Counted from the stretch's first letter, positions 22,182 through 61,442 are shown. The stretch: DNA of 64,000 nt from an uncultured Thiotrichales bacterium (GCA_903881315.1 CAIRSR010000113.1:4693-68692), one strand, 5' to 3'. Made by a program: numbers and translations. The notes: a model not told the origin generated them from the sequence alone.

Positions 22182-22232
22182 TTTGGTGAATTGCAGTCGT
22201 CGCGTCGCTCTCTGAATGGTTGGAGGTTGGCT

Positions 22233-24305: not shown

Positions 24306-27300
24306 ATGACGCAGAAACCGGAACTTTCTCCGACCAAACGGGCGTTGCTGGCGCTACAAGAAATGCAGGCAAAGGTGGCGCGGTTGGAGAGCCAGCAGCG
24401 CGAACCGATCGCTGTGGTGGCGATGGCGTGCCGTTTTCCTGGGGGTGCCAATACCCCGGAGGCGTTTTGGCAGATGCTCTGCGAGGCGCGTGATGCGATC
24501 ACCGAGATACCCCCCGAGCGTTGGGACGTGGAGGCCTACTATGACAAAGACCCCAATGTCCCAGGCAAGATGTACACCCGCTTTGGTAGTTTCTTAAGCG
24601 CGATTGATGCGTTTGACCCGATCTTTTTTGGCATTACCCCGCGTGAGGCGCACTCCATCGACCCCCAGCACCGCTTGTTGCTACCGGTGACCTGGGAGGC
24701 GCTAGAGAATGGTGGTTTTGATGTCAACGCCTTGTACGGTAGTCGCACCGGCGTCTATGTCGGGATTAGTAATTTCGAGTATGGCGCGGCCCTCTGGTCG
24801 GATAGCCCGGAGCGGATCAGCGCCTATTCTGGCACCGGTGGTTCGCTCGGGGTGGCTGCGGGTCGTTTGTCCTATACGTTTGGGTTCACCGGCCCGAGCA
24901 TGATCATCGATACCGCCTGTTCCTCGTCGCTCGTCACCACCCACCTCGCGATGCAGGCATTGCGGCTTGGGGAGTGTGATCTCGCGATCAGTGCTGGCGT
25001 CAATCTCATCTACGGCCCAGAGACCCATATCAATTTCTGTAAGGCGCGGATGCTGGCTGCCGATGGCCACTGCAAGACCTTCTCTGCCGCCGCCGATGGC
25101 TACGCCCGAGGGGAAGGGGTCGGGGTCTTGGTGTTGAAGCGTCTAAGCGACGCTAAACGCGATGGCGATACGGTGCTTGCCTTATTGCGGGGTTCGGCAG
25201 TCAATCAGGATGGGCCGAGTGGCGGCCTTACCGTGCCGAACGGGCCGTCGCAGGTCAAGGTGATCCGCGCTGCCCTGGCGAGTGGCGAGATTCACCCTGA
25301 TCAAGTGGGCTACCTAGAGGCCCACGGTACGGGTACAGCACTCGGCGATCCGATCGAGATGGGGGCGCTTGCGACTGTCTTTGGGTTGCGCAAGACGCCG
25401 CTCCGTGTTGCCTCGGTGAAGACCAATGTGGGGCATTTGGAGTCGGCGGCGGGTATCGCGGGGTTGATCAAGGCCGTCCTTTCGGTGCAACACGGGGCGA
25501 TTGCGCCGCATCGCAATTTCGAGCAACCAAGCCCGCATATCGACTGGGCGTCAATCTCGGTTGCAATCCCTACGGCCCTCACCGAGTGGCCAGATCCGGT
25601 GCGGATTGTCGGGGTTAGCTCCTTTAGTTTTAGTGGCACCAATGCCCATGTGGTGGTGTCGAATGATGTTCCCGTGGGCGCGACCGTTGAAGCGCTTACA
25701 CACGAGCCGTCCCCGCTGGTTGCGCCAACGACCTGGCCCGCAACGCGCCTGCTCGCGTTGTCGGCGAAGAGTAGTGCTGGGCTACAGGCGTTGGCTGCGC
25801 GGGTCGCAGATGACCTGGAGCGTCGCCCGAGCAACGCCTGGCATGGCTACTGTGTCGCGGCTGCCCGTGGGCGCGGTCACTATAGCCATCGTCTCACGTT
25901 ACTCGCCGACACCCCAGCGGCTGCCGCCACACGGTTGCGAGTGGGTGAGGCGCAGACCAGTCGCCGTCCGGTGAATCCGCCGCGCATCGCCTTTCTGTTT
26001 ACTGGACAGGGTGCGCAGTATCTCCAGATGGGGCGAGAACTCTATGAACAAGAGCCTTATTTTCGGTCGATTTTAGAACAATGCGAGGCCATCGCGAGTC
26101 CGCTGATTGGGCGTTCGTTGCTCGGGCTGTTGTATCCCGCGCCCGAGGCGGCGACACCCGAGGCGGAGGCCCTACTGGCCGCGACCGAGTATACCCAGCC
26201 TTTGCTGTTCGCAATCGAATATGGGTTGGCACAGTTGTGGCGGCATTGGGGTATCGAGCCGGAGGCGCTGATTGGTCATAGTGTCGGCGAGTTGGTGGCG
26301 GCGACGGTTGCGGGTCTCTGGACGCTAGAAACCGGGTTGACCTTAACCTGTGCGCGGGGTCGTCTGCTCGCAGCCTTGTGTTCGCCGGGTGCGATGGCCT
26401 CTGTCCCGTTAAGCTCGGCGGCGGTCAGTGCCCGTTTGGCGACCTATCGCGAGCGGGCGAGCGGGGTGGTGCTTGCGAGCATCAACGGCCCTGAGAGTGT
26501 CGCGGTCGCGGGAAGTGCCGCTTCTCTCAACGCGCTCATTGCGGCGCTTGCCGCCGAGGGGATTGAGGCTAAGCCATTACGGGTCTCCCACGCCTTTCAT
26601 TCGCCGCTCGTTGAGCCCATGATCGCGGCGTTTCGGGCGGAACTTGGCTCGGTGAGGTTTGCGACCCCAACCATCCCGATTCTCTCTAACCTCAATGGTG
26701 AGTTTGCTGACCCGCAGGTGCTTGCTACTCCCGCTTACTGGTGCCGACATCTCCGTGAACCGGTGCGTTTTGCCGATGGGTTGGCGCGACTGTTGGCGGA
26801 GGGTTTCGATACCTTTATTGAAGTAGGCCCAAAGCCAACCCTCTGTGCCTTTGGGATGGCGCAAGCGGAGGCTCTTGGGATGACGGCGAGCTGGTTGCCG
26901 AGCTTGCGCTATCGCGTCGAACCCTGGCGGCAGTTGTTGCTTAGTCTTGGCGAACTCTATCGTCTTGGTCTGGATGTGGCCGCCTCGGCGCTGGCGCAGG
27001 GGGGGCCGCGCTATCCGCTCAGATTGCCGAATATGCCGTTCCAGACCGATCACTACTGGCTAGAGAAACCAGCAGAGCGGGTGCGCCTGCGTGGTGGTCA
27101 TCCGCTGCTGGGCGAGCGGCTTGAGACGCCGTTGCTTGCAGCGGGTGGGGTATTGTTTGTCAATGAACTCTCCGCCGAGAGTTTTCTTGCCCACCACCAG
27201 ATCTTTGGCCAGGTCGTGTTGCCTGCAGCGGGGCATATGGAGATGGCGTTGGCGGCGGCGGGGGCGTTGCTGCCGAACGGCGCGTGGCTCCGCGAGGTCA

Positions 27301-30300
27301 CTATCCAGCGGGCGCTCGTCCTGCCAGTCGCGGCTGCGCTGCCCGTGCAGATGGTGTTGCAAGCGAGCGCGGATGGCTACCGCTTTACCATCTATGCGCC
27401 GACCGAGGGCGTTCCCGGGGCTACTTGGCAGCCGTATTCCGCAGGCGAGTTGGTCGCGGGGGTCTTGCCGCTTCGCCCCATGATTACGCTGGATGAGATG
27501 CGAGCGCACTGTGATGAGGCGTTTCCGGTTAGCGAATACTATCGGCTGGCGCACTCGGTGGGGATTGCCCACAGCGCAGACTTCCAGGCGCTGACCGGTC
27601 TCTGGCGTGCGCCGGATGCGGTGCTGGCGAGGATTGAACTGCCGCCTGCGCTGGCGGGGGAGGCGGGCGCGTTTCGGTTGCATCCGGTGCTCTTGGATGC
27701 GGCCTTTCAGGCGGCGAGTGTGTTGCTGCTCGCGCGCGGTGTTACCTACCTGCCGGTCGGTCTTGCCGAGTTACAGACTACCCGCCCGTTGCCCAAACAG
27801 TTGTGGTGCTGGGTCACGGCGCAGGCGGGCGCGGAGGACGCACGGTTGTTTCTGGCTGACCTGCAATTGTTCGATGATGAGGGTGAGCAGATTGCTGAGG
27901 TGCGCGGGCTTTGCTTCCAGCAGGTTGATGTCCACGTCCTCACCGACGCCAGGCGGCGCTATGGGTCGTGGCTCTACCAGATTGCCTGGGAGACGCAACC
28001 GCTCTTTGGTGTGCAGCCACCGTGCTCACCGCCACAATTGGGTGTCGCGCTCGCCGAGGCAACGCGCGAACTGGTGCCGCAGTGCGCGTTTTATCAGCCG
28101 TTTTTGGCGGGTCTTGAGCAGTTGGCGGGCGGCTATATCCAACAAGCGCTACAGCAGTGTGGTTGGCAGCCAGCGCCGAACAGTGTCTTTACTACCCCTG
28201 CCTTGGCCAAACAACTCGGTGTGCAAGAGTCCTTTGCTGCGTTGTTTGAGCGCTGTCTCGCCATCCTCGCCGAGGACGGTGTTCTCCGCCGCGAGGCCGA
28301 CCAGTGGCGGGTAGTGACGCCCCTTGTGGCGTTGTCTCCTGCTGTGGTCGAGGCATTGCGTCTGCAGTATCCGGCGGCGCTGCCGGAGATTACGCTCTTG
28401 GAGCGTTGCGCGAGCGTTCTTGCTGGTGTGTGGCGTGGTGAGGTCAATCCACTGCATCTCTTGTTCCCAGAAGGTTCGCTTTCGGTCACGACGTTGCTCT
28501 ACCAGCATTCGGTGGGGGCGCGGATCATCAATGATCTGCTGGCGTCTGCGGTGCAACGAGCGGTTGCGGGTCTGCCGACAACCCAGGGCATTCGCATCCT
28601 AGAGATCGGCGGCGGCACCGGTGGCACCACGACGCGCTTGTTGCCACTGCTTCCGGTGGGGCGTAGCGATTATCTGTTTACTGACATCTCGACCTACTTT
28701 ACCAACCATGCCAAGCAGCAGTTTGGCGGCGAGTATGGCTTTGTCCGTTACGGATTGCTCGATATTGAGAAATCACCACCGGCGGAACTGTGCGGCCAGT
28801 TTGACCTTGTCGTTGCCGCGAATGTGGTACACGCCACCCGTGTGCTTGGCGAGACCCTGGCCCATTGCGCGGAACTGCTGGCCCCAGGCGGGATGTTGGT
28901 GCTCCTCGAGGCAGAGGCCCGCCAACGCTGGCTCGATCTCACTTTTGGCATGACCGACGGTTGGTGGCGCTTTATCGGTAGCGACCCGTTCCGCGCTGAT
29001 TATCCCCTCTTGACGACCGAGCAATGGCGTACATTACTGCCAACCTGTGGGTTTGATGGGGTGACGATACTCGGGCCCGATCAATACAGCGAAGCGGCAC
29101 AGTTACGCCAAAACATCGTTCTCGCACGACGCGCTCTGCGGGAGGTTGCTCTCCCGCCCCGTCTTGCGCTGGGTCGTTGGTTGATTGTTGGCGACAGTGG
29201 GCCCGGGGGGGTTGGCGCACTCTTGGCCGAGCGCTGTGTCGGACGCGCAACGCTGGTTGCCCGTGACGCTTTTCTTAGCAACAGTGCCGCATTGTTGGCA
29301 GAACCGCTCGCGGGGGTTGTGTTGGTGTATGCCCTCGAAGAAGACACGCCCCTCGAAGCGCCCCAAGCACTGCTTCATGCACAAGAGCGTATCAGTACGC
29401 CGTTGTTGCGGTTGTTGCAGGGTTTGGGGAATGAGCGGACGTGCGCATTGTGGGTGGTCACCCGTGCGGCGATAGCCGTACCGTCCGATCCGTCTTGCGA
29501 GGCTTCCGACTTGGCGCGTGACGCACAAGGTCTGGTGCAGACCGTGCTGCATGGCCTGATGCGCAGTGCCGTTGTCGAATATCCGCAATTACAAACGGTG
29601 GTTCTCGACCTCCCCGCCGCTGAAAGCAAGGCCGCGAGCGCCGAGCGCGTCTGGCGCGAGTTTGCCGCAGCGCAACAACCCGAGGAGGTGGTGGTGCTGC
29701 GCGATGCGGGTCGGTTCGTGCGTCGGCTGCAACGCGATGACGCCCAACCCGTCGCGAAACGCTTGAGTCTTAGCGCCGAGGCTTCTTATCTCATTACGGG
29801 TGGTCTTGGTGACCTTGGGCTGCTCGTGGCGCACTACCTAGTAGAGCAGGGGGCACGCTACCTGGTCTTGCTCGGGCGGAATGGGCCGCGTGAGAGTGCG
29901 AAGGCAAGTCTCGCGGCACTCGAAGCGGCTGGGGCTGTGGTCGAGATTGCAACGCTTGATATTACCGATGACCTCGCGCTTCAGGCCTTGCTCGCATTGC
30001 CTCGGCCACCCCTGCGTGGGGTTGTCCATGCGGTTGGTGCGCTTAGCAACGGCGCTTTGGCGACAATGGACTGGCCGAGGCTTGCGTCCGTCTTGAGCGC
30101 CAAGGTGTTGGGTGGCTGGAACTTACACCAGGCAACCGAGACGTTGCCGCTTGATTTCTTTATCCTATTTTCTTCGATCAGCTCAGTATTCTGGTCGGAG
30201 GCGCAAGGCAACTATGCTGCCGCCAATGCCTTTCTTGATGAGCTGGCGGGATTCCGAGAGCAACGACAACTGCCCGCACTCGTGATCAACTGGGGCGCTT

Positions 30301-30965
30301 GGTCGGAGATTGGTCTTGCGGCCCGCACCGGCGCGTTGGCCCACGCGACGGGGCAGGGTGTCGCGGCGATTCGGCCAGACGACGGCATCGCCCTTTTCGA
30401 CCTGCTCTGGCAGCGGCAAGGGCAGGTGATAGTAACGTCGGTGGACTGGCCGAACCTGCTCCGGCAACTACCAAAGCCAATGCCGTTGGTAGAGCACTTT
30501 AGGGACAAGCAGGCAGCGGCGGTTGTTGCGGCAATGGGAGGTAGCGCTTGGCTTACGCAGTTGCGTACACTGCCAACGAACGAACAGCGTGCGGTATTGC
30601 TCGATCGCGTGCGCGAAGAGGTTGCGCGGGTGATTGGTGGTAGCGCCTCCCAGCTCGACGATCAGACCGGGTTTTTCGATCTAGGGGTTGATTCTCTGAC
30701 CGCAGTAGAGTTACGCAATGCCTTGCAGGCGGCTTTACCAGTAAACTTACCGGCAACGCTGTTGTTTAAGTATCCGAACATTGCTGCGCTGGCTGCCTTC
30801 TTGGCGACCGAACTGCTAAGTGAGGGGTCGCCTCCGGTGGCTCCTCCCCAAGTTGCTGTTGCTTCCGCAGCGCCGACGACTGCCGCGCTTGAGGTTGGCA
30901 GCATGTCGGAGGCGGAGCTAGAGGCCTTGATCAATGATGAATTCGCTAATCTCAACGAGTATTGA
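24306..30965 (+). CDS. Type I PKS, module 3: KS-AT-DH-cMT-KR-ACP
   Basis: Docking-like LLALQEMQAKVARLE. KS: DTACSSSL (24909), HGTGT, NVGH. AT: GQGAQYLQMG, GHSVGE (26274), SHAFHS. DH: HQIFGQVVLPAAGH (27193), LLDAAFQ. C-methyltransferase SAM motif ILEIGGGTGGTT (28596). KR: TGGLGDLG (29793), no LDD. ACP: LGVDSLT (30680). Confidence 0.95.
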   Translation: MTQKPELSPTKRALLALQEMQAKVARLESQQREPIAVVAMACRFPGGANTPEAFWQMLCEARDAITEIPPERWDVEAYYDKDPNVPGKMYTRFGSFLSAIDAFDPIFFGITPREAHSIDPQHRLLLPVTWEALENGGFDVNALYGSRTGVYVGISNFEYGAALWSDSPERISAYSGTGGSLGVAAGRLSYTFGFTGPSMIIDTACSSSLVTTHLAMQALRLGECDLAISAGVNLIYGPETHINFCKARMLAADGHCKTFSAAADGYARGEGVGVLVLKRLSDAKRDGDTVLALLRGSAVNQDGPSGGLTVPNGPSQVKVIRAALASGEIHPDQVGYLEAHGTGTALGDPIEMGALATVFGLRKTPLRVASVKTNVGHLESAAGIAGLIKAVLSVQHGAIAPHRNFEQPSPHIDWASISVAIPTALTEWPDPVRIVGVSSFSFSGTNAHVVVSNDVPVGATVEALTHEPSPLVAPTTWPATRLLALSAKSSAGLQALAARVADDLERRPSNAWHGYCVAAARGRGHYSHRLTLLADTPAAAATRLRVGEAQTSRRPVNPPRIAFLFTGQGAQYLQMGRELYEQEPYFRSILEQCEAIASPLIGRSLLGLLYPAPEAATPEAEALLAATEYTQPLLFAIEYGLAQLWRHWGIEPEALIGHSVGELVAATVAGLWTLETGLTLTCARGRLLAALCSPGAMASVPLSSAAVSARLATYRERASGVVLASINGPESVAVAGSAASLNALIAALAAEGIEAKPLRVSHAFHSPLVEPMIAAFRAELGSVRFATPTIPILSNLNGEFADPQVLATPAYWCRHLREPVRFADGLARLLAEGFDTFIEVGPKPTLCAFGMAQAEALGMTASWLPSLRYRVEPWRQLLLSLGELYRLGLDVAASALAQGGPRYPLRLPNMPFQTDHYWLEKPAERVRLRGGHPLLGERLETPLLAAGGVLFVNELSAESFLAHHQIFGQVVLPAAGHMEMALAAAGALLPNGAWLREVTIQRALVLPVAAALPVQMVLQASADGYRFTIYAPTEGVPGATWQPYSAGELVAGVLPLRPMITLDEMRAHCDEAFPVSEYYRLAHSVGIAHSADFQALTGLWRAPDAVLARIELPPALAGEAGAFRLHPVLLDAAFQAASVLLLARGVTYLPVGLAELQTTRPLPKQLWCWVTAQAGAEDARLFLADLQLFDDEGEQIAEVRGLCFQQVDVHVLTDARRRYGSWLYQIAWETQPLFGVQPPCSPPQLGVALAEATRELVPQCAFYQPFLAGLEQLAGGYIQQALQQCGWQPAPNSVFTTPALAKQLGVQESFAALFERCLAILAEDGVLRREADQWRVVTPLVALSPAVVEALRLQYPAALPEITLLERCASVLAGVWRGEVNPLHLLFPEGSLSVTTLLYQHSVGARIINDLLASAVQRAVAGLPTTQGIRILEIGGGTGGTTTRLLPLLPVGRSDYLFTDISTYFTNHAKQQFGGEYGFVRYGLLDIEKSPPAELCGQFDLVVAANVVHATRVLGETLAHCAELLAPGGMLVLLEAEARQRWLDLTFGMTDGWWRFIGSDPFRADYPLLTTEQWRTLLPTCGFDGVTILGPDQYSEAAQLRQNIVLARRALREVALPPRLALGRWLIVGDSGPGGVGALLAERCVGRATLVARDAFLSNSAALLAEPLAGVVLVYALEEDTPLEAPQALLHAQERISTPLLRLLQGLGNERTCALWVVTRAAIAVPSDPSCEASDLARDAQGLVQTVLHGLMRSAVVEYPQLQTVVLDLPAAESKAASAERVWREFAAAQQPEEVVVLRDAGRFVRRLQRDDAQPVAKRLSLSAEASYLITGGLGDLGLLVAHYLVEQGARYLVLLGRNGPRESAKASLAALEAAGAVVEIATLDITDDLALQALLALPRPPLRGVVHAVGALSNGALATMDWPRLASVLSAKVLGGWNLHQATETLPLDFFILFSSISSVFWSEAQGNYAAANAFLDELAGFREQRQLPALVINWGAWSEIGLAARTGALAHATGQGVAAIRPDDGIALFDLLWQRQGQVIVTSVDWPNLLRQLPKPMPLVEHFRDKQAAAVVAAMGGSAWLTQLRTLPTNEQRAVLLDRVREEVARVIGGSASQLDDQTGFFDLGVDSLTAVELRNALQAALPVNLPATLLFKYPNIAALAAFLATELLSEGSPPVAPPQVAVASAAPTTAALEVGSMSEAELEALINDEFANLNEY
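28390..29085 (+). other. C-methyltransferase domain inside PKS3 (approximate bounds)
   Basis: Class I SAM fold: ILEIGGGTGGTT, DYLFTDIS, FDLVVAANVVHAT, LLAPGGMLVLLE. Located between DH and KR. Confidence 0.8.
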
Positions 30966-33900
30966 GCGTGACTGTAGCCAGTAGCCGTGGTGTTGCAACA
31001 CCGGATGACATGAGCCCCCTCCAGCGGGCGGCGCTAACGATTCGCGAGCTAAAGAGTAAGCTTGAGGACAGTCGCCAATCCCAGTTTGAGCCGATAGCCG
31101 TTGTCGGCATGGATTGTCGTTTTCCCGGGGCGTCTTCGCTTGATGAGTTTTGGGCGTTACTGCGCGATGGGGTGGATGCGGTGCGTGAGGTGCCGCTGGA
31201 TCGTTGGGATCTGTCGGAGTGGTTTGACGCAAACCCGAACGCTGCCGGTAAGATCAATACCCGTCATGGCGCTTTTATCGAGGATGTCGCGGGTTTTGAT
31301 GCTGCGTTCTTTGGCATCCCGCCCCGTGAGGCTATGCAGATGGATCCTGGCCAACGCCTGTTGTTGCAGATCACCTGGAGCGCACTCGAGCGGGCGATGA
31401 TCCCGCCGGAGTCGTTGCGCGGCAGTCGTAGCGGTTTTTTTGTCGGCATGAGCCAGAATGATTATGGCTCCCTCCAGATCAATGGCGACCCGAGTGCAAT
31501 TACCGCCTACAGTGGTACCGGGAATGGCTGGTGTTTTGCGTGTGGGCGCATTGCCTTTCAGTATGGTTTCAACGGCCCGGCCCTGACCACCGATACGGCC
31601 TGTTCTTCGTCGCTGGTGGCCATGCACCAGGCGGTCAATGCCCTGCGTATGCGCGAGTGTGATGTAGCCATGGCGGCGGGTGTGCAGCTCAACCTAACGC
31701 CGCCGATGCAGGTGTTTTTCGCCCGTACCCAATCCTTTTCGCCAGACGGTCGCTGCTTTACCTTTGATGCACGGGCGAACGGTCTGGTGCTCGGGGAAGG
31801 CGTGGCGGTGGTGGTGTTGCGACGCTTGAGCGATGCGTTACGCGATGGGCAGCCTGTCCTGGCGGTGATTCGCTCGACCAGCCTCAACCATGATGGTGCC
31901 TCGGGTGGGCTGACCGTGCCGAATGAGAGCGCCCAAGAGGCGCTGATCCGTGACGCATTGCAACGTGCGCGGGTCGCCCCAGACAGTATCGATTATATCG
32001 AGACCCACGGCACTGCCACCCCGCTTGGCGATCCTATCGAGGTCGGCGCATTACGCGCCGTGTTTGGCAAGCGCCCCGCGAGTCAGCCGCTTACCATCGG
32101 CTCGGTCAAGACCAACATCGGTCATCTGAACGCCTCGGCGGCGATTGCGGGTTTTATCAAGACCGTGTTAATGCTGCAACACCAGCAGATGGTTCCGCAT
32201 CTGCACTACCGCGAACCGAATCCCAAGATACCCTGGCAGGGTTTTGCGGTACAAGTGCCGACTGCGTTGCAACCTTGGCCGGCACCGCCGTTAGGTCAGC
32301 CGCGCCGTGCGGGTCTCAGTTCCTTTGGTTTGAGCGGCACCAATGGTCATCTCGTGTTAGAGGAATGGCCGATAGCGGTTGCAACCCCGCAAACCGAGCC
32401 CCCAGTGGTGGAGCGCCCACTGCACCTGTTCGCCCTTTCGGCGCGGAGTGAAGTGGCGCTACGGGCGTTGGCCGCGAGTCATCGGCAACGGCTTAGTGCA
32501 GATCAGGGGCTATCGTTGGCTGACTATTGTTATAGCGCCAATGCCGGTAGGAGCCATCTTGGTTGGCGCGCCATTGTGTGTTGTGCCACCATTCTTGAGT
32601 TGCAGGAGGCCCTGGGTGCGCTGGCTGTGGGTAGCGAGCATCCGTGTTTGCGTGGCCCACAGCGAAACCGTGGCGCAGCGCCTAAGGTGTTGATGACGCT
32701 CGCGCACGACCCTGCACCGTGGCTGATAACGCATCCGGTCTCTCGCAAATGGCTTGCCCACTATGCTCGTGTGAGCGGATTGCTGCTTGATACAGCAGTG
32801 CTTGACGCCAACCGCACACCCGCCACAGAACTTGCAGGCTACCTGGTGCTCGCCGCGCTGTGGCAGGCGTGGGGGGTACAACCAACCGCCGTGCAGGGGG
32901 TTGGCGGTGGTCGCTATGCGGCGGCGGTGCTCGCTGGTGCGCTTACTGCCGAGGAGGCCTTTGCGGCTCTTCTGCAAGGTCGAGCGCCCGTCCTCGCGGC
33001 CCCACAGCGCACCCTGCTGGAGGGGGATGGCAGTCGCCTGGTGTCCCTCCAAGGGGGGGGGCAGCCTTTGGCGGCGCTAGCGGGCTACGATGTGCGGTTG
33101 TCTCTCGGCAGAGAGGACGCGCCGGAAGAGGGCTCTTCTTTGCCCTGGACGAGTGTGCTCGAGGAGCTGGTGGCCTTCTATCTGGAGGGAGGCGCGGTTG
33201 ACTGGCGTGGTTTCGATGCGGGTTACGGGCGGCATTGGTTGGTTCTGCCTACCTATCCCTTTGCCCGCGACCGTTACTGGCGCGACAATCAGGTTGTAGC
33301 TCCGCCGACAAAGGTGGTGGCAGCGCCTGTGGTGGCAATGGAGCGAGACAACCCGCCCGCTCTGGCGGCGGAGCCGGAAAAGGGCGCACCGTCTGTTGCA
33401 CCGGAGGGTGAGCCACCGGTGTCGGTAGCGCCAGTGGTGTCAGCGCCGACGGAACCGGTATCGGCCCGAGCGTCGTTAGTCCCCGAACCAACAACTGCAG
33501 TGGTTTCGTCCTCGTGGTCGTTGGCGCAATTGATGGAGCGCCAGTTGCAACTGGTCGCTGAGGCCATCAGTAGTGTGACGCTGCAGCAATTGACGGCGCT
33601 GCAGGTCATTACTGCGGCAGGGGCTAAGGTGGCGGCGGTTGGGCCCGCTTGCGACGCTCCTTCCCAGGTGCCACCTCTTGCGCCCAATCCGCTAATTGCA
33701 GAGGGGACGCAGGGGCAGTCCCTCCCCGAGGGGGAGTCTTTCACCGAACAATCAGAGAAAGAGAGACCTTCTCAACCGGAAGAAACGAGTGGGGGAGCAG
33801 CGCACGGGACGGGTGAGTGCCACATGACAACGGATGGTTGTGGTGGCGCTGCTGAAGACCCTCCGGTTTCTCCAGTAATCCCTGTGGCCAGCGTAATCGA

Positions 33901-35245
33901 TCCGCTGCGTTGTGGTGATTGGCGCTTGTTGCTCTGCCACGCTGCCGACCCGGATGCGCTCTTGGCCGAGCGGCAGTTGCTTGCGGCGCAAATTATCGAT
34001 GCCCCCGATGCGGTGCTGGCCGCGAGTCGCAAGGCCTTGCAGCAGCCCCCTGCCGTTGGTCGGCGATTGATGCTGAGTTATCAGGATGTTCAAGAGGCCG
34101 CCCTGGCGCTCGGCACCCAAGGCAGTAAGCGAGTAATCAGCGCCGCTAGTCATGAACAGGCACCAGCGGTTGTCTTTATGTTTCCAGGCGTGGGGGATCA
34201 CTACCTCAATATGGGGCAGGGTCTGTATCGGGCAGAGCCGTTATTCCGCGCGATCGTTGATCATTGTTGTGACTATCTGTTGCCGGTAATCCATGTTGAT
34301 CTGCGCACGGTGCTCTATCCGCTGGAACCAGTGAATACAAATCCTGAGGCCGCAGCACCGAAATTCGATCTGCGTGCTATGTTGGGGCGTGGGTCTTCTC
34401 CACCCAATCCGCAATTAGAGCGCCTGAATCAGACGCTGCATAGTCAACCGCTGTTGTTTATTATCGAATATGCGTTGGCGCGGTTGTGGTTGGCGCGGGG
34501 TGTGCAGCCGCTTGCGATGATTGGTTACAGCATTGGCGAATACACTGCGGCGGTTTTAAGTGATGTGATGGCGCTGGATGATGCCCTGCGACTGATTGCC
34601 CGTCGCGCCGAGCTGATTGAGGGGGTTGCCCCGGGCGCAATGTTGGCGATACCGTTGGGTCTAGATGCCTTGCAATCACGACTTGGTGGGGGGCTTTCTT
34701 TGGCGATTAGCAGTACGCCGAATCAGTCGGTGGTTGCCGGGCCCGTTCTGGCTATTGAGGCATTGCAAGAGCAGCTCAAGGCGCAAGAGGTGGTGTGTCG
34801 AAGGCTGCAAAGCAGTCACGCATTCCATTCGACCATGCTACAACCCTTGCACCAGCCATTGCGGAAACTCGTGAGTGAGTTTCGTTTGCAAGCGCCGCGC
34901 ATCCCCTATATTTCTAATGTGACGGGGGATTGGATTCGAGATGCCGAGGCGACCGACCCCGACTATTGGGCACGTCATACCTGGCAGACGGTGCGTTTTG
35001 CCGATGGCCTAGGGCGGCTGCTGGCGCCGGACGCATTTGCTGGCGCGAGTAATCGGCTATTTCTAGAGGTGGGCCCGGGGGTAAGCCTTGGTAGTTTCAT
35101 GCTGCAGCACCCGGCGTCGGCGCAATTGGCGCGGAAAGTGAGTCTGCCAACACTTCGCACGATGTATGAGCGAACCCCCGACGAGCAATTCTTGCTAAAC
35201 ACCCTGGGTAAACTCTATCTGGCTGGTGTCCAATTATCTCTGTAA
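30962..35245 (+). CDS. Type I PKS, terminal protein: KS - degenerate AT-like region - about 290-aa low-complexity linker - intact AT; no ACP, no release domain
   Basis: The start (TTG 30962 or GTG 30968) overlaps the PKS3 stop codon. Docking-like LTIRELKSKLEDS. KS: DTACSSSL (31592), HGTAT, NIGH. See the domain sub-features below. Confidence 0.9.
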   Translation: MSVTVASSRGVATPDDMSPLQRAALTIRELKSKLEDSRQSQFEPIAVVGMDCRFPGASSLDEFWALLRDGVDAVREVPLDRWDLSEWFDANPNAAGKINTRHGAFIEDVAGFDAAFFGIPPREAMQMDPGQRLLLQITWSALERAMIPPESLRGSRSGFFVGMSQNDYGSLQINGDPSAITAYSGTGNGWCFACGRIAFQYGFNGPALTTDTACSSSLVAMHQAVNALRMRECDVAMAAGVQLNLTPPMQVFFARTQSFSPDGRCFTFDARANGLVLGEGVAVVVLRRLSDALRDGQPVLAVIRSTSLNHDGASGGLTVPNESAQEALIRDALQRARVAPDSIDYIETHGTATPLGDPIEVGALRAVFGKRPASQPLTIGSVKTNIGHLNASAAIAGFIKTVLMLQHQQMVPHLHYREPNPKIPWQGFAVQVPTALQPWPAPPLGQPRRAGLSSFGLSGTNGHLVLEEWPIAVATPQTEPPVVERPLHLFALSARSEVALRALAASHRQRLSADQGLSLADYCYSANAGRSHLGWRAIVCCATILELQEALGALAVGSEHPCLRGPQRNRGAAPKVLMTLAHDPAPWLITHPVSRKWLAHYARVSGLLLDTAVLDANRTPATELAGYLVLAALWQAWGVQPTAVQGVGGGRYAAAVLAGALTAEEAFAALLQGRAPVLAAPQRTLLEGDGSRLVSLQGGGQPLAALAGYDVRLSLGREDAPEEGSSLPWTSVLEELVAFYLEGGAVDWRGFDAGYGRHWLVLPTYPFARDRYWRDNQVVAPPTKVVAAPVVAMERDNPPALAAEPEKGAPSVAPEGEPPVSVAPVVSAPTEPVSARASLVPEPTTAVVSSSWSLAQLMERQLQLVAEAISSVTLQQLTALQVITAAGAKVAAVGPACDAPSQVPPLAPNPLIAEGTQGQSLPEGESFTEQSEKERPSQPEETSGGAAHGTGECHMTTDGCGGAAEDPPVSPVIPVASVIDPLRCGDWRLLLCHAADPDALLAERQLLAAQIIDAPDAVLAASRKALQQPPAVGRRLMLSYQDVQEAALALGTQGSKRVISAASHEQAPAVVFMFPGVGDHYLNMGQGLYRAEPLFRAIVDHCCDYLLPVIHVDLRTVLYPLEPVNTNPEAAAPKFDLRAMLGRGSSPPNPQLERLNQTLHSQPLLFIIEYALARLWLARGVQPLAMIGYSIGEYTAAVLSDVMALDDALRLIARRAELIEGVAPGAMLAIPLGLDALQSRLGGGLSLAISSTPNQSVVAGPVLAIEALQEQLKAQEVVCRRLQSSHAFHSTMLQPLHQPLRKLVSEFRLQAPRIPYISNVTGDWIRDAEATDPDYWARHTWQTVRFADGLGRLLAPDAFAGASNRLFLEVGPGVSLGSFMLQHPASAQLARKVSLPTLRTMYERTPDEQFLLNTLGKLYLAGVQLSL
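32414..33286 (+). other. Degenerate (catalytically dead) AT-like / KS-AT linker region of PKS4
   Basis: GQGxQ is replaced by KVLMTLAHDPAPW. The GHSxG nucleophile is replaced by GVGGGRY (32897-32917). The region is shorter than the ATs of modules 1-3, but the post-AT motif YPFARDRYW is kept. Confidence 0.7.
34157..35245 (+). other. Intact C-terminal acyltransferase domain of PKS4 with variant nucleophile elbow
   Basis: VVFMFPGVGDHYLNMG, GYSIGE (34523-34540) instead of GHSxGE, SSHAFHS, EVGPG. It lies at the extreme C-terminus with no carrier domain after it. Confidence 0.8.
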
Positions 35246-55238: not shown

Positions 55239-58200
55239 TTATGCGATTGGATACGCGAGTAGTACCGCATCTTCTTGACCCACGCCCTGCGCCAGTGATT
55301 GGTAGCCCCGGGTCTCTAGCGATGCGATGAGGCTCATGGAGACCTCGTACCGATAGCGCCCGAGTCCCAGCAATGGGCGGTGGCGGCTCAATGTCTGCCA
55401 GGCACCCGAGAGAACCTCGGTTTCACGCCCTTCTGAATCCACGATCAACAGATCGCAAGCGGGTAGCTCAAGGCTATCTAGGGTTCGGCAGGGTACTGGT
55501 TCATTCATCCGCAGGGAATCCGTCTCTACGTCGTTGCTGATGGGTAGATCCCAGGGGTAGGCACGCCAGGCGGGCAACTCTTCTGGTCTCGCCCCGATTC
55601 GTTCGCCACCATAATGTACGCAACTGAAACCCTGTTGCAGGATGGATGCCTGTAAGCGGTGCATGGGCTCGGGGCGTTCGTCGAAAACAATCACGAGCCC
55701 GCTATCGCCTACGGCCTTGGCGAGTGCTGATGTGACTGCGTCGCCATGGGTGCCTATTTGTACCACAACCGCCCCGGGTTTGACTAATTGCGCAAAGAGT
55801 TGGCCGGTGATTAGCCGTGCTTCGTGTTGCGCTTGAGAGAGAGTATGCCCTATCCAGCGGTTCAGGGCTGCTCGAGAGGCGCGTGTGGCAAGGGTATTGG
55901 CAACGGTTTTTAATACGCCTGCCCAGTCTCCTAGGCGTTCTTGGCGAAAGAGCCGCATCAACGGATGCCAGGGCATCGTATTGGTTCCGAGTGAGAGCCA
56001 ATTCGGTAGGGCCGCGTCCAAACGCCAGACCTCGCAACCAACCGCTGCTGCTATTTCTGCGACACTGTTGGGCGGGGCGATAACCAGATCTAGGGCGCTA
56101 GACAGGGCGGCGACACCTTCTAGGTCATTGAGTAGGTCTAACTCTCGGAGCTGGATTACCTGAACCCCGAACTGTGTGCTGACTGCGGCCAATTCCTCAG
56201 TACAGTCATCGTATTGAAGATTTACAAACGTCACATCCGCGACCGAGAATAGCGCACCCCATGCGGTGAGTTGCGAATAGAAACGTGCTCGCCCCCCTCC
56301 GACCAAACGGCTTCGCCAAGAAATACCAACCGTTAATCGACCGCCACCCAATTCTGCGAGGCGTTTACGCCATAGGGTGCGTTGTTCCGGGCAGGGTAGC
56401 AAATAACCGGGTTGACGCGGGAAACTGTTGAGGTGACGCCGGAGATAGGTCGCTATGCTCCCGATGGGGCACTGGAAATCGATCTTTCCTACGGTTGCGA
56501 GCCATTCCCTATTGTCGCGCGCCACCGCGTATACCTCTACACTGGGAAAGGAACGGGCGAGCAGGGCACCCAGTCGTGGTTCGCACTCGACGATGCAACG
56601 CCCAACCCACGGCAATAGATCGGGCAGACACGAGGCGAAGAGGATCTCGTCCCCTATCCCTTGCTCGGCATAGACGAGCAGGGTGGCGTTTGGTGCGTAA
56701 CGCCCATCCCAGCGCGGAAAGTCAAAACCGCGCAAGGCCAGGCGCATCTTGTCGTGACCGGCCTCGTAACCGTTCCATCCGGGGGCTAGCTCGCCGCGCA
56801 TCAGGTGGGTTAGGCCAGTATTCCAGCGAATACGCACATCCTCGGAGGCGCGACGCTCGGCCTCGGCAAAACAGGAAAGCGCCTCTTCTGTTCTCCCTTG
56901 GTCACGCACGCTTAATCCCAAGCCATTCCATAATAAAGCGCTGTCTACCCCTTGTTGTAAGGCAATCCGGAAATGCGTCTCGGCGCTGACCGGATCCCCT
57001 TCTTCTTGGAGCATATTGGCCAGGTTATAGCGGGCCTCGAACAGATCCGAGCGCAATTCTAAGGCTGTTTGGTAGCAGGTGCTGGCTTCATTGATCTGTC
57101 TGCGCTTACCGTATAATACGCCAAGGTTGTTCCATGCTTCTACGTAGTCTGGTCGCACCCGCAACGCTTGTTGGTAGCACCCTTCGGCTGCCGTGAGTTC
57201 GCCACGCTTTAGGTGCAGATTACCAAGATTGTTGTGTGCCTCTGCCTGGTCTGGGTCAAGACGTAGCGATTCTTGGTAGCAAAGGGCGGCTTCCTCTAGT
57301 TCGTTTCTTTCCTGTAGTACCAAGCCACGCCGATACTGCTCTTGTGAGGAACAGGTGATTGCCGATGGCTGTGGTGAAGGCACAAAATTTGCCAGTGCAA
57401 GGGCAATCCGCGCCAATACCTCCCGCCAATTGTCGGGTTGTGCTTGACGAAATAACTGCACTCGTGGATGCCAGGGGAAGGCGTCAGTGCCCAAAGAAGT
57501 CCAATGACGACCAAAGGTCTCGATGCGCCATACCGGCAAACCTAGGGCAGCAGCAAGCTCGCCGGCGGCGTTTCCTGCGCTAATCACCAGATCGAGATTG
57601 GCGGTTAGAGCAGCCGCTTCGTCGAGATCGTTCATCAGATCTATTTCTGGGAAGCCGGTAATCTCGACGCCAAAACGCTTTTGTGCCGCCGCGAGTTCTG
57701 CTGAACAATCATCGTACTGGAGATTGACAAAGTGTATGCCGGGTACCGCGAATATCGCCCCCCAATCGGCTAAACGACTATAATGACGGTCGCGTATCGC
57801 ATTGCGCAGGCGGCTGCGCCAGGTAATGCCGACCTTGATGTTGTGCCCAGCCAGTCGTTCGCGCCAATAGGCCACCCGTGCTGGGTCTGCCACGAGATAG
57901 GCGGGATTGCTCGGAAAGTCCGTGAGATTCCGCCGTAAAAAGCGTGGCAAACTCCCGATGGGAATCTCTTTGTCTACCGCATCAACCGCCACGAGTTCGG
58001 TGAGCCACTCTTGTCGATCCCGCTCGATGCCCGCTATCGTTGCCTTGGGAAAGGAGCGGCGGTAGAGCGGTGCTAGGCGGCGGTCACACTCGATAATGCA
58101 ATGTCCCACTTGTTTTAATAGATCAGGCAGACAAGAGGCAAACAGGATCTCATCGCCCACGCCTTGTTCGGCATAGACCAATACGGTTTGCCCGCTGAGG

Positions 58201-61200
58201 TTGCTGCCATCCCATTCCGTGAAGTGATGAAAGCCCTGTCGTCTGCCTTCATTACGGGGCAGAAAACGTCCGGCCTCGTAGGCCTCCCAGCCAGCCTCTA
58301 GATCGCCGAGGGCGAGCAGCGGGATCGCGAGGTTCCAGCGCATCTCTTGGTTGTCTGGGTAACGCTGCACCCACTCGCTCATGCACTCGACCGCAGCGCC
58401 TGGGCGTCCTTGTTCGTGGCGCACCCTGCCGATGCTGAGTATGGCAACCTCCATCCCCAGATCCAACGCCTGTTGGAAACAGCTTTCCGCCTCCATGAGG
58501 TTGCCGGCGGCCTGTAGGGTATTCCCCAGATTGAGCCAGGTGCCGGCGAGATCCGGGCGTAGCTCCACTGCACGTCGGTCGTGGGTGGCGGCTTCACTGA
58601 GGAGCCCCTCCTCACGCAAGGCGTTGCCAAGGTTGCTGTGGGCGAAGGCCATGTTTGGATCGAGTGCGATTGCCTCGCGGAAGGCCGCCTTTCCTTCTTC
58701 GGAGCGGCCCAACGAACGCAGTGCATTGCCGAGATTGTTCCAAGCTGGCGCATAGCTTGGTGCGAGGCGAATTGCCTCGCGGCAGACGGTCTCTGCTTCC
58801 ATGAAACGCTCTTGGAGCTGTAGGCAGTTGCCAAGATTGCCTAGCAGTTCGGGGCTGGTTGGCGTTACCGCGAGGGCCTCTCGATAGAAGGCTTCTGCCT
58901 CAAGCCAGCGCCCTTGTTCGGTGACGAGGTTCGCCAACATATTGAGCGCTTCGGGCCAACCGGTTGGGTGCAGGGCCAATGCGGCGCGGTAGGCAGTTTC
59001 GGCGGCAGCCACCTGGTTGTCACGAGCGAGGGTCGCGCCAAGGTAGAACTGCGCCTGGGGGTAGTGGGGACGCAGGGCGAGCGCCTCTCGATAGGCGGTG
59101 ATCGCTTCTGCAAGGCGACCGAGGTCGCCGAGGCAGTTGCCGAGGTTATACCACCCTTCTGGGAAATGGGGGCGGAGGCGTAACGCGCCACGGTACGCTG
59201 CCTCGGCATCCGCAATGCGTCCTTGTAGTTCCAGGACTGTGCCGAGGTTGTTGTGTGCCTCCACCAGATCGGGTTGATAACGTAGCGCACTGAGGTAACA
59301 GCGCTCGGCCTCGGGGATACGTCCCTGTGCGCGCAGCAGGTTGCCAAGGTCGTTGTGGGCATGCGCCCAGGTGGGGACTAAGCGCAGTGCCGCACGGTAA
59401 GCGGCTTCGCCCTCAATGGGTTGTCCAATAGCCGCGAGCGTTCCGGCGAGGTGTCCGTGATAGAGCGCGACCTGGGGGGCGGCGGCAACGGCTTGCCGCA
59501 ACGCCGCCAGTGCTGCCAGCGGATTGCCTTCGGCATTGGCGATTGTGGCGGAAAGGTCAAGGGCAACTGGGTCGTTCGGGTAGGTTGCGAGGTGGGCGTC
59601 GCAGTGATGGCGCGCTTCGGCTAAGTGACCCGCCCGTAGGTATTCGCGGACGATGGTGAGCGTATCGGTGCCTGGTAGCGCGGCTATGCTCTGTTCAATG
59701 GGGGTGAGAGGGGTTGTGGTCTCTGGTTGGGTGCGGAGGGTATCCAGCGCCTCAGCCACTCGCTGTAGTACGGTCTCCCAATCGCCGAGGGTTGTTTGGC
59801 GGAACACCCGCATCATCGGATGCCAAGGGAAGCCATCGGTGCCAAGAGAGGTCCAGGCCCGCCCGAAGGGTTCCAGTCGCCAAACCGGTACGCCGAGGGT
59901 GGCGGCTATCTCTCCGGCTGCGTTTCCGGCAGCGATGACGAGGTCGAGAACCGAGGTGAGGGCAGCCGTGCCATCGAGATCATTGAAGAGATCCAGCTCG
60001 GGGAAGGCATGGATCTCCACGCCGAACAGACGCCGCGCCGTTGCGAGTTCGTCGGCACAGTCGTCGTACTGCAGATTAACAAACTGAACGGATGGAATCT
60101 TGAAGCAGTCTCCCCATTCATTCAAACGGCTGTAATTGCGGTGTCTTCCTTCGCGGAGTGAGCCGCTACGCCAAGTAATGCCGACCTTCAGACCAGGCCC
60201 TAATGCGTTGAGTCGTTCTCGCCAATGGTTGGCCGCGACCGGATCGGCCACCAAATACCCAGCGCGAGGTGGGAAATCCGTGACCCTGGCGCGTAGGTAG
60301 CGGGCAATACTCCCGGCTGGGATCTGTGCGTCGATGTGCGGGAGGTCTGCTAACCAGGCGCGGTTGGTGCGCCGTACCCCGACCACAGTCGCCGCGGGGA
60401 ATGAACGCTGATATAGAGGGGCGAGTCGTGGGTCACACTCAAACAGGCAGTGTCCGGCCCTTTCAAGAAGATCGGGAAAACAAGACGCGAACAACAGCTC
60501 GTCGCCGAGCCCCTGTTCGGCGAAAACCAGCAGGGTTTTTCCGGTGAGCGAGCTGCCATCCCACTCAGGGAAGGGTAGCGGCTGCCATTGAAAGACCGGG
60601 CGGCGCCACTCGTAGGCCTGCCAGCCCTCGGTCAGTTGGCCAAGTGCTAGGAAGATGAAGGCCCGATTCCAGTGTCCGAGTGGTTCGTCGGGGCACAAGG
60701 TAATCGCGTGATGGTATGTTTCCAGGGCTTCCTCTAAGCGGTCTTGTGCTTGGAGGACTGCGGCCAGGTTATTGTGTGCGCTGTAGTAAGAGGGTTGCAG
60801 CTTGAGGGCGCGGCGCAGCCAATGCTCGGCCTCGGTCAATCGATCGAGGGTCTTTAGGATAGTGGCGAGGGTGTTGGCGGACTCGACGTGGTTGGGATCG
60901 ATGGCCAGTGCGCGCTCGAAGCAGAGTGCCGATTCCTCTAGGCGGGTCAATCGACGCAACAGGAGGCCCTGGTTGTAGTGGATCTTGACGTCGTTTGGCT
61001 TGAGGGCCACGGTCTGCTGGTACAAGGCCATGGCGTCTTCTAGCTGGCCTTTTTTCTCGAGGACTCCAGCGAGATTATTGAGGGCGTCGGCGTAGTCCGG
61101 GTGGAGGTTCAGCGCTCGACGGAGGATGTCTTCCGCATCGTCTAATTGATTCAGGTTAAATGCGGCTAGGCCGAGGTTGTTCAATGCCTCTGGCCAGTCG

Positions 61201-61442
61201 TGGCGCAACTCGAGAGCCCGGTTTAGGTAGAGCTGCGCGTCGCTAAAGTGGCCACGCTGGCTCGCAAGGGTGCCCAATAGATACAGTACCTGGGCGTGGT
61301 TGGGCTGGGTTGCTAGGATTTTCCGGTAGATAACCTCCGCGCCCGCCAAATCGCCCTTTTCGTGGAGTTTAAATGCCTTTTGGAAACGTCGTTCGTCTTC
61401 TCGGGCACGGTGGGTGCTGTGCATCGGTCTCTCCTGCGTCAC
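55239..61442 (-). CDS. Giant multidomain protein: three tandem [TPR array + GT-B/heptosyltransferase(GT9)-like domain] modules followed by an FkbM-family methyltransferase domain
   Basis: 2067 aa with many 34-aa TPR units (..A...Y..AL.L.P....A..NLG..). Three near-identical cores: WDGSSLTGKTLLVFAEQGLGDELLFASCFPDLL, WDGSNLSGQTVLVYAEQGVGDEILFASCLPDLL, WDGRYAPNATLLVYAEQGIGDEILFASCLPDLL. Each is followed by VGI(T/S)WRS, FVNLQYDDC, DLVI(A/S)(A/P)(G/P)N, PWHP. C-terminal FkbM-like: VVVQIGTHGDAV...TLDSLELPACDLLIVDSEGRETEVLSGA. Confidence 0.85.
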   Translation of the reverse strand: MTQERPMHSTHRAREDERRFQKAFKLHEKGDLAGAEVIYRKILATQPNHAQVLYLLGTLASQRGHFSDAQLYLNRALELRHDWPEALNNLGLAAFNLNQLDDAEDILRRALNLHPDYADALNNLAGVLEKKGQLEDAMALYQQTVALKPNDVKIHYNQGLLLRRLTRLEESALCFERALAIDPNHVESANTLATILKTLDRLTEAEHWLRRALKLQPSYYSAHNNLAAVLQAQDRLEEALETYHHAITLCPDEPLGHWNRAFIFLALGQLTEGWQAYEWRRPVFQWQPLPFPEWDGSSLTGKTLLVFAEQGLGDELLFASCFPDLLERAGHCLFECDPRLAPLYQRSFPAATVVGVRRTNRAWLADLPHIDAQIPAGSIARYLRARVTDFPPRAGYLVADPVAANHWRERLNALGPGLKVGITWRSGSLREGRHRNYSRLNEWGDCFKIPSVQFVNLQYDDCADELATARRLFGVEIHAFPELDLFNDLDGTAALTSVLDLVIAAGNAAGEIAATLGVPVWRLEPFGRAWTSLGTDGFPWHPMMRVFRQTTLGDWETVLQRVAEALDTLRTQPETTTPLTPIEQSIAALPGTDTLTIVREYLRAGHLAEARHHCDAHLATYPNDPVALDLSATIANAEGNPLAALAALRQAVAAAPQVALYHGHLAGTLAAIGQPIEGEAAYRAALRLVPTWAHAHNDLGNLLRAQGRIPEAERCYLSALRYQPDLVEAHNNLGTVLELQGRIADAEAAYRGALRLRPHFPEGWYNLGNCLGDLGRLAEAITAYREALALRPHYPQAQFYLGATLARDNQVAAAETAYRAALALHPTGWPEALNMLANLVTEQGRWLEAEAFYREALAVTPTSPELLGNLGNCLQLQERFMEAETVCREAIRLAPSYAPAWNNLGNALRSLGRSEEGKAAFREAIALDPNMAFAHSNLGNALREEGLLSEAATHDRRAVELRPDLAGTWLNLGNTLQAAGNLMEAESCFQQALDLGMEVAILSIGRVRHEQGRPGAAVECMSEWVQRYPDNQEMRWNLAIPLLALGDLEAGWEAYEAGRFLPRNEGRRQGFHHFTEWDGSNLSGQTVLVYAEQGVGDEILFASCLPDLLKQVGHCIIECDRRLAPLYRRSFPKATIAGIERDRQEWLTELVAVDAVDKEIPIGSLPRFLRRNLTDFPSNPAYLVADPARVAYWRERLAGHNIKVGITWRSRLRNAIRDRHYSRLADWGAIFAVPGIHFVNLQYDDCSAELAAAQKRFGVEITGFPEIDLMNDLDEAAALTANLDLVISAGNAAGELAAALGLPVWRIETFGRHWTSLGTDAFPWHPRVQLFRQAQPDNWREVLARIALALANFVPSPQPSAITCSSQEQYRRGLVLQERNELEEAALCYQESLRLDPDQAEAHNNLGNLHLKRGELTAAEGCYQQALRVRPDYVEAWNNLGVLYGKRRQINEASTCYQTALELRSDLFEARYNLANMLQEEGDPVSAETHFRIALQQGVDSALLWNGLGLSVRDQGRTEEALSCFAEAERRASEDVRIRWNTGLTHLMRGELAPGWNGYEAGHDKMRLALRGFDFPRWDGRYAPNATLLVYAEQGIGDEILFASCLPDLLPWVGRCIVECEPRLGALLARSFPSVEVYAVARDNREWLATVGKIDFQCPIGSIATYLRRHLNSFPRQPGYLLPCPEQRTLWRKRLAELGGGRLTVGISWRSRLVGGGRARFYSQLTAWGALFSVADVTFVNLQYDDCTEELAAVSTQFGVQVIQLRELDLLNDLEGVAALSSALDLVIAPPNSVAEIAAAVGCEVWRLDAALPNWLSLGTNTMPWHPLMRLFRQERLGDWAGVLKTVANTLATRASRAALNRWIGHTLSQAQHEARLITGQLFAQLVKPGAVVVQIGTHGDAVTSALAKAVGDSGLVIVFDERPEPMHRLQASILQQGFSCVHYGGERIGARPEELPAWRAYPWDLPISNDVETDSLRMNEPVPCRTLDSLELPACDLLIVDSEGRETEVLSGAWQTLSRHRPLLGLGRYRYEVSMSLIASLETRGYQSLAQGVGQEDAVLLAYPIA
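55878..60575 (-). repeat. Internal triplication of the GT-like domain (and its preceding TPR arrays) within the giant ORF
   Basis: Approximate GT-like copies: 59733-60575, 57393-58220, 55878-56720. A 35-nt core of copies 2 and 3 compared by eye gave 29/35 identical nt. Confidence 0.8.

Follow-up and report, generated by a model that had tools for sequence, protein, structure and literature searches.

Organization of the Gene and Its Product

We analysed a stretch of 64,000 nucleotides (hereafter the window) from an uncultured Thiotrichales bacterium (GCA_903881315.1 CAIRSR010000113.1:4693-68692), in which one large gene encodes three intact FlmG-type units, each a tetratricopeptide repeat (TPR) array followed by a glycosyltransferase (GT) domain, and a methyltransferase-fold tail, all in a single polypeptide. 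The open reading frame (ORF) was called at 55239..61442 on the minus strand. It is uninterrupted and runs for 2067 codons from a GTG, the length given in a preliminary description of this DNA. That frame is present, but the ATG at 61424 is a likelier start than the GTG at 61442. The sequence GGAGA precedes this ATG at a suitable distance, and the 2061-aa product starting from it has an exact match on record, from more than one other contig and at least two samples, whereas an exact look-up of the GTG-started version (2067 aa) returned nothing; the 2061-aa numbering is therefore used here. The start of this gene and that of a divergent rhodanese gene (ATG 61463, plus strand) are only 38 bp apart, so both promoters must overlap coding sequence or each other.

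Local profile search placed three domains of about 310 aa (D1, D2, and D3; longer than the roughly 280 aa first proposed), TPR-rich stretches of 258, 467, and 187 residues, and a tail of about 207 residues. The earlier view of a single ORF with three units of TPR array plus domain was thereby upheld. At least 15-16 TPR motifs were recognized in the whole protein with Pfam, and the conserved blocks quoted in the preliminary description each occur three times, in register and with equivalent spacing. No N-terminal signal peptide is evident by eye. The features are as follows:

55239..61424, minus strand: whole gene, 2061 aa plus stop (ORF call; exact product on record, other contigs)
60651..61424, minus strand: TPR array 1, residues 1-258 (Pfam TPR matches; local hmmsearch borders)
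59718..60650, minus strand: FlmG-type GT-B domain 1 (D1), residues 259-569, with 'EQGLGDE' and proposed catalytic Asp308 (hmmsearch 448.6 bits; all family-conserved residues kept)
58317..59717, minus strand: linker and TPR array 2, residues 570-1036, the longest array (Pfam TPR matches; local hmmsearch borders)
57366..58316, minus strand: FlmG-type GT-B domain 2 (D2), residues 1037-1353, with 'EQGVGDE' and Asp1091 (AlphaFold2 model, Foldseek, FlbA alignment)
56805..57365, minus strand: TPR array 3, residues 1354-1540, the shortest array (Pfam TPR matches; local hmmsearch borders)
55863..56804, minus strand: FlmG-type GT-B domain 3 (D3), residues 1541-1854, with 'EQGIGDE' and Asp1592 (hmmsearch 414 bits; all family-conserved residues kept)
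55242..55862, minus strand: tail resembling class-I methyltransferases (FkbM-like), residues 1855-2061; its glycine loop, 'VVQIGTHGD', is degenerate (partial PF05050 match, AlphaFold2 model, Foldseek, motif comparison)

Fold and Family of the Repeated Domain

The isolated repeated domain gave no Pfam or NCBIfam match even at E <= 10, PF01075 included, while scans of the whole protein against both collections were swamped by TPR matches. A sequence search of the PDB with one domain and a profile search with the family profile yielded chance matches only. The AlphaFold2 model of D2, built from a 63-sequence alignment, has two Rossmann-like halves (predicted local distance difference test score, pLDDT, 93.6; predicted template modelling score, pTM, 0.92). 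When this model was compared with the PDB by Foldseek, GT9 enzymes of the GT-B fold ranked first (E 2.7e-8 to 1e-4; template modelling score, TM, 0.52-0.64). The best matches were WaaF 1psw (E 2.7e-8), a Veillonella GT9 protein 3tov (TM 0.61-0.64), WaaC, and the protein heptosyltransferase TibC, the TM of the GT9-type matches ranging overall from 0.45 to 0.64; SPY, of family GT41, stood at rank 49. On this model, the repeated domain is predicted to have a GT-B fold, with GT9 heptosyltransferases as its nearest solved structures.

The profile comparison (hhalign) with E. coli WaaC and WaaF aligned about 40 residues at probabilities of 14% and 4%, and these alignments were used for motif register only. 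The segment 'VLVYAEQGVGDEILFASCLP' in the repeated domain has the same beta1-loop-GD-helix layout as 'VLIVKTSSMGDVLHTLP' of WaaC, which contains the catalytic Asp13. This motif, the GT-B fold, and a helix in the C-terminal half with the pattern 'h-h-h-x-x-x-x-x-x-x-L-A-x-A-L-x-x-P' are common to the window domains and the GT9 enzymes WaaC, WaaF, and TibC. However, the GT9 donor motif D(S/T)GxxH (WaaC 'VDTGLSH', Asp261) aligns to 'AGNAAGE', 'AGNAAGE', and 'PPNSVAE' in the three copies, 'SAGNAAGE' standing opposite 'VDTGLSH', so that the window domains carry Gly/Pro and Glu in place of Asp261 and the following His. Because this motif is replaced, the repeated domain is not a canonical GT9 enzyme, and its sequence assigns it to the FlmG/FlbA family. 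GT9 enzymes also lack TPRs, and the donor probably differs. Of the GT9-type GT-B assignment made in the preliminary description, the fold was thus recovered and the GT9 membership was not.

All in-domain positions that are conserved in at least 85% of 60 relatives are identical in D1, D2, and D3, among them E-Q-G-x-G-D, the W of 'WRS', 'LQ', the D of 'LDLV', and 'PW'.

The window protein also shares with GT41 enzymes (OGT, SPY) the principle that a TPR array picks protein substrates for a fused cytoplasmic GT-B catalytic domain. Unlike the window protein, which has no PF13844 match, GT41 proteins belong to another catalytic family with a larger catalytic region and have one module per chain.

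Kinship with FlmG and FlbA

A word-index protein search with D2 returned 154 single-module proteins of a TPR array plus this domain, none longer than 555 aa. Among these single-module proteins, the gene for P0060 of Asticcacaulis adjoins flbT, flaF, three flagellin genes, flaG, and flaEY, and that for P0110 of Rhizobium lies between a six-gene operon of pseudaminic-acid type, ending in NeuB, and two flagellin genes. With P0060 as the query, we retrieved a 599-aa 'protein FlbA' from Caulobacter rhizosphaerae, whose gene stands beside flbT, flaF, and flagellin genes, followed by cytidylyltransferase and acetyltransferase genes. D2 aligns with residues 278-598 of this FlbA, its whole C-terminal domain, at 38% identity (E 5e-67), and D1-D3 are 33-41% identical to P0370, P0060, and P0110. 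The GT9 Asp/His motif is missing from FlbA too ('VGFSNATTNLGG'), so that its absence marks the family and does not signal decay of the window protein.

In previous studies, FlmG of Caulobacter crescentus and Brevundimonas subvibrioides was characterized as a flagellin O-glycosyltransferase of the cytoplasm; its TPR domain binds flagellin, and whether pseudaminic or legionaminic acid is preferred depends on its GT-B domain (PMC7591256; bioRxiv 10.1101/2022.03.25.485807). The flmG gene of C. crescentus is CCNA_01524 (596 aa), which is adjacent to flmH and was earlier studied as a flbA-flaG unit contiguous with flaF and flbT (PMC7591256). The gene position, the length (599 versus 596 aa), and the citation trail in PMC7591256 suggest that FlbA and FlmG are equivalent, and the FlbA region aligned to D2 covers the GT domain as the FlmG authors define it (residues 309-596).

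The window protein thus repeats three times the arrangement of FlmG, an N-terminal TPR array and then a GT-B domain, which measures about 290-320 aa. Homology between the GT domains of the two proteins extends over their full length, and both proteins lack the GT9 Asp/His donor motif. A cytoplasmic location, as in FlmG, fits the lack of an evident signal peptide. The differences are that FlmG has one module in 596 aa (about 550-600 aa in the class), compared with three modules and a tail in 2061 aa, that its gene lies in a flagellin locus, whereas no flagellar genes were found among the ORFs scanned in the window, and that the FlmG class has been described as confined to Caulobacterales, whereas the window protein belongs to a gammaproteobacterial (Thiotrichales-like) lineage. 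The protein target chosen by TPRs that the preliminary description had suggested would agree, by analogy, with the established model for FlmG, the closest characterized relative.

The C-Terminal Tail

The tail scored 30.2 bits against the FkbM family PF05050 (cut-off 22.7), but over profile positions 80-150 only, and 33.5 against TIGR01444, below the cut-off of 37.7. Its AlphaFold2 model (pLDDT 79) matched, at the top of the Foldseek results, only class-I methyltransferases dependent on S-adenosylmethionine (SAM), and the tail is homologous to those of 18 other multi-module proteins. It is thus modelled as a class-I methyltransferase fold and, like the FkbM methyltransferases, retains the block 'CDLL..D.EGRE..VL.GA'.

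However, the tails of the window clade lack about 40 N-terminal residues of the homologous tails, a segment that FkbM enzymes possess. The GxGxG SAM motif I is absent as well: the corresponding sequence is 'QIGTHGD' in the window protein, 'QVGTQGS' in a Thiotrichales relative (L004, see below), 'QIGAQDD' in P0123, and 'QIGSGDE' elsewhere in the clade, while more distant tails have 'E(V/I)GAGxG' at the glycine-rich loop. Since the loop of the window tail is G-T-H-G-D, SAM binding and activity in this clade appear doubtful. The FkbM-type end of the protein that had been predicted therefore stands as a fold, whereas the active SAM loop that such an enzyme would carry was not recovered.

Copy Number and Conservation of the Modules

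D1, D2, and D3 are 53-59% identical at the amino acid level in a MAFFT alignment (50-57% by BLASTP) and 55-62% identical in nucleotides. The identity of about 83% reported earlier for one core stretch was reproduced in the best 60-nt window, between D2 and D3, but the longest exact DNA repeat in the whole ORF is 14 nt. A Thiotrichales metagenome-assembled genome (L004) encodes a collinear orthologue of 2069 aa with the same three modules and 73% identity. The domains of the two proteins pair one-to-one at 81, 77, and 74%, compared with 50-60% for paralogous pairs, and the flanking ORFs of L004 correspond in position and size to those of the window, where a methyltransferase and a rhodanese gene lie upstream and a VTT/DedA gene downstream. 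A second relative (L005) has four modules, one of them inserted, and P0123 has four as well.

Nonsynonymous divergence (dN) between the window gene and its L004 orthologue is 0.14-0.28 in every segment, with synonymous sites (dS) saturated, so the claim is limited to dN being far below dS. This pattern points to purifying selection on all segments. Together with the one-to-one pairing of the domains, it indicates an old triplication whose modules have each been kept separately, and an assembly artefact is therefore excluded for practical purposes. Recent tandem duplication and assembly collapse were ruled out by the short exact repeats, the nucleotide divergence of the copies, and the collinear orthologue, and the risk of repeat-driven collapse or expansion raised in the preliminary description proved negligible.

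Distribution of the Multi-Module Form

When 1.84 billion cluster representatives (50% identity) were searched exhaustively by HMMER with a domain-only profile, the FlmG-type domain was found in 44,359 proteins at E <= 1e-3 and in 25,169 at E <= 1e-30. The best-scoring 150 proteins all contain two to six copies of the domain, with lengths of 810-3140 aa, and a homologous C-terminal tail is present in 19 of them, the window protein included. The fused multi-module form is recurrent in sequence databases, and the architecture, which had been presented as unfamiliar in its triplicated form with a methyltransferase, is not unique. Rarity was not judged from the word-index search because long multi-module proteins were missed there: it lists nothing above 651 aa, misses even the 2061-aa window protein, which is in the collection, and gave no match with the tail as the query. 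In the literature found by full-text search, the multi-module FlmG-like form was not described, and FlmG appears there as a single-module protein only.

The relatives P0132, P0133, P0144, and a Dechloromonas protein (L006) share with the window protein the order of repeated TPR-GT modules followed by a homologous methyltransferase tail, the first three also with three modules. They differ in that their domains are 37-50% identical to those of the window protein and that their tails have both the canonical 'GAGxG' SAM loop and the N-terminal segment missing in the window protein.

Additional C-terminal enzymes were seen in other multi-module members of the family. A second class-I methyltransferase ('LLDYGAGKG...CTDVLEHIPE') follows the FkbM-like domain in six of the 19 tail-bearing proteins (P0131, P0140, P0213, P0215, P0240, and P0243), and a GT4-like domain is found at the C-terminus of four other proteins (P0150, P0176, P0188, and P0224).

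Gene Neighbourhoods

The contexts of eight multi-module family genes were examined. In Dechloromonas (L006), the gene for two modules and a tail lies between homologues of PseB, PseC, PseF, PseG/H, and PseI and a gene for a 686-aa flagellin, followed by FliD and FliK. The genes of P0132, P0133, and P0144 (three modules and a tail) are each situated between sugar or nonulosonic-acid genes and genes for 678-693-aa flagellins with FlaG, FliD, FliS, and FliT. Further sugar-modifying genes in the neighbourhoods of relatives encode GFO_IDH_MocA and DegT proteins, a radical SAM enzyme, and methyltransferases, and the gene of P0125 (five modules) adjoins PseB- and PseC-like genes. No flagellar genes were within reach of P0122 and P0150.

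The long flagellin (678-693 aa) was seen beside every tail-bearing multi-module gene with an informative context, at L006 11743-13803, L013 16133-18169, L016 16308-18389, and L017 15550-19914, which suggests that multi-headed glycosyltransferases are linked with large, probably heavily glycosylated, flagellins. A different setting was observed in Polynucleobacter sp. CS-Odin-A6 (L009 4466-12496), where two tandem single-module FlmG-like genes directly adjoin a pair of OGT-like TPR-GT41 genes, making four clustered TPR-glycosyltransferase genes, around which no flagellar genes were seen.

The neighbours of the window gene encode a VTT/DedA protein, a rhodanese, a class-I methyltransferase, argininosuccinate lyase, a rhodanese protein with a cyclic nucleotide-binding domain, and two DUF697 GTPases. 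A VTT/DedA gene and a gene of Methyltransf_11/23/25 type lie both near the window gene (54639-55187; 61999-62997) and near the gene of the distantly related five-module P0150 (L014 3225-8638), and L004 has ORFs whose sizes and positions match these two genes; the association may be conserved or due to chance.

Predicted Function and Alternative Explanations

Taken by analogy with FlmG, the gene product is probably a protein O-glycosyltransferase of the FlmG class, cytoplasmic and multi-headed, with flagellin as the likeliest acceptor, a nonulosonic acid as the donated sugar, and a tail that is perhaps inactive; we give this reading a probability of about 0.65. Each of the three modules is a self-contained FlmG-like unit, in which the TPR array may dock the acceptor protein and the adjoining GT-B domain would transfer to Ser/Thr a nucleotide-activated sugar, most likely a cytidine monophosphate (CMP)-nonulosonic acid of pseudaminic or legionaminic type. 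The heads may differ in acceptor, site, or donor specificity and would then not be redundant, because they are only 50-57% identical, have arrays of about 258, 467, and 187 residues, and are each kept separately in the orthologue. The tail would descend from an FkbM-like SAM methyltransferase and probably methylates the glycan in relatives, while in the window clade, where its SAM-binding loop appears decayed, it may be inactive, a relic, or structural. Three parallel acceptor or donor specificities are at least as likely as the sequential addition of sugars. The protein is best regarded as an FlmG-class variant with several modules; it is neither a GT9 enzyme nor a unique architecture.

Several points weigh against this reading. 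No flagellin, flagellar, or nonulosonic-acid gene occurs among the scanned ORFs of the window, nor among the few ORFs scanned or position-matched in the L004 and L005 loci; flagellin, already raised as a possible target in the preliminary description, adjoins four relatives of the same architecture. The family is also very large and includes non-flagellar settings (Polynucleobacter beside GT41, P0150, and P0122), and homology alone therefore does not fix the acceptor. The equation of FlbA with FlmG rests on position, length, and citation and not on a direct alignment with CCNA_01524. Finally, no catalytic residue of FlmG has been experimentally mapped in the FlmG literature consulted, and an intact active site accordingly means here conservation together with the analogy to WaaC Asp13.

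The most serious alternative keeps the enzyme class and changes the job: having moved out of the flagellar island, the protein of this clade might glycosylate other proteins, cytoplasmic or exported (pilins, adhesins, S-layer proteins, or housekeeping proteins), with one acceptor class per TPR array. We regard this as possible rather than probable. The lack of flagellar and sugar genes among the checked ORFs of the window, L004, and L005 speaks for it, as do flanks made up of rhodanese, class-I methyltransferase, and VTT/DedA genes with matching positions in L004, the family members known from non-flagellar contexts, and a tail degenerate only in the window clade, which fits a change of role. 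However, a link to flagellin exists for every characterized member and for every tail-bearing relative with an informative context, and flagellin glycosyltransferase genes can be distant from flagellin genes, as the widely separated locus numbers of the flm genes in C. crescentus illustrate (table in PMC7591256). An unlikely explanation is the sequential assembly line proposed in the preliminary description, in which module 1 would place the first sugar on the protein, modules 2 and 3 would extend it to a di- or trisaccharide, and the tail would add a methyl cap. In its favour are the divergence of the GT domains, a module order that the orthologues share, the extra enzymes (a second methyltransferase or a GT4-like domain) at the ends of some relatives, and the additional genes of the GFO_IDH_MocA, DegT, radical SAM, and methyltransferase types near others. 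What lowers its likelihood is that every GT domain comes with a protein-binding array, which suits a protein acceptor and would not be needed by a glycan extender, and that the module number varies within the clade (three in the window and L004, four in L005 and P0123), which parallel units fit better; in addition, the SAM loop of the tail is degenerate in the window protein, and the known products of FlmG are single nonulosonic acid residues.

Two further explanations touch the identity and the integrity of the gene. That WaaF and WaaC are the nearest solved structures, and that the 'GD' motif after beta1 resembles the surroundings of WaaC Asp13, could indicate a GT9-type heptosyltransferase-like enzyme whose acceptor would be the lipopolysaccharide (LPS) core or some other lipid or polysaccharide and whose TPRs would be scaffolds. 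This is very improbable, given the missing PF01075 and NCBIfam matches at E <= 10, the WaaC/WaaF profile probabilities of 14% and 4%, the replacement of D(S/T)GxxH by 'GNAAGE', and a far stronger similarity to FlmG/FlbA; nor were LPS genes seen nearby. Internal repeats and one 60-nt window at 83% identity might also be read as signs of an assembly artefact, or of a decaying pseudogene, with a wrong copy number. Against this, for which we see practically no room, stand the 14-nt longest exact repeat, copies that are 55-62% identical in nucleotides, the same 2061-aa product on more than one contig and in at least two samples, a collinear, 73% identical orthologue with three modules, and a 6.2-kb open frame with dN far below dS.

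Other Features of the Window

A large type I polyketide synthase (PKS) cluster occupies positions 1-39800 of the window:

8..916: ketoreductase-acyl carrier protein (KR-ACP) end of a PKS; further genes of the cluster encode an ABC exporter, a thioesterase, and an APS kinase
9204..16568: PKS gene with an AMP-binding loading domain at its start
16578..22181: PKS gene
22191..24203: AsmA/YhdP-like gene between PKS genes
24306..30965: PKS gene with a C-methyltransferase
30962..35245: PKS gene, followed by 3-hydroxyacyl-CoA and acyl-CoA dehydrogenases

A link between this upstream cluster and the multi-module gene was rejected, as the two are about 20 kb apart on opposite strands with unrelated genes between them. 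Two tandem GTPase-DUF697 genes, of about 520-530 aa, are located at 48328-51367 on the minus strand, and a third, stand-alone DUF697 ORF was found near the PKS cluster (1386-1943, plus strand). The G+C content of the window ranges from 0.46 to 0.64; the stretches at 2-8 kb and 36-46 kb are poor in G+C, and the PKS genes are rich in it.

Significance for the FlmG Family

FlmG represents the only class of flagellin glycosyltransferases in which genetics has separated the binding of the acceptor (TPR) from the choice of donor (GT-B). Compared with its description as limited to Caulobacterales, the approximately 25,000 clusters (50% identity) at E <= 1e-30 point to a very wide spread of the FlmG-type domain. 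Fusion of two to six TPR-GT units has happened repeatedly in nature, often with methyltransferase or GT4 tails and often beside flagellins that are unusually large. Each such fusion is an experiment of nature in how acceptor and donor specificities can be combined; together they could explain how flagella become heavily and heterogeneously glycosylated and could guide the glyco-engineering of proteins with sialic-acid-like sugars.

The window clade is a candidate for changed function, because its gene is unlinked from flagellar genes and its tail is decayed. It is conceivable, though rather doubtful, that the three-headed FlmG-type enzyme of this clade, off the flagellar island and with its SAM loop lost, has become a general cytoplasmic 'sialyl-like' protein transferase, in which each TPR array recruits another class of non-flagellar proteins or the heads build, in sequence, a short glycan on one protein. 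If this were true, it would be a bacterial counterpart of the regulatory glycosylation of OGT/SPY type, carried out with nonulosonic acids.

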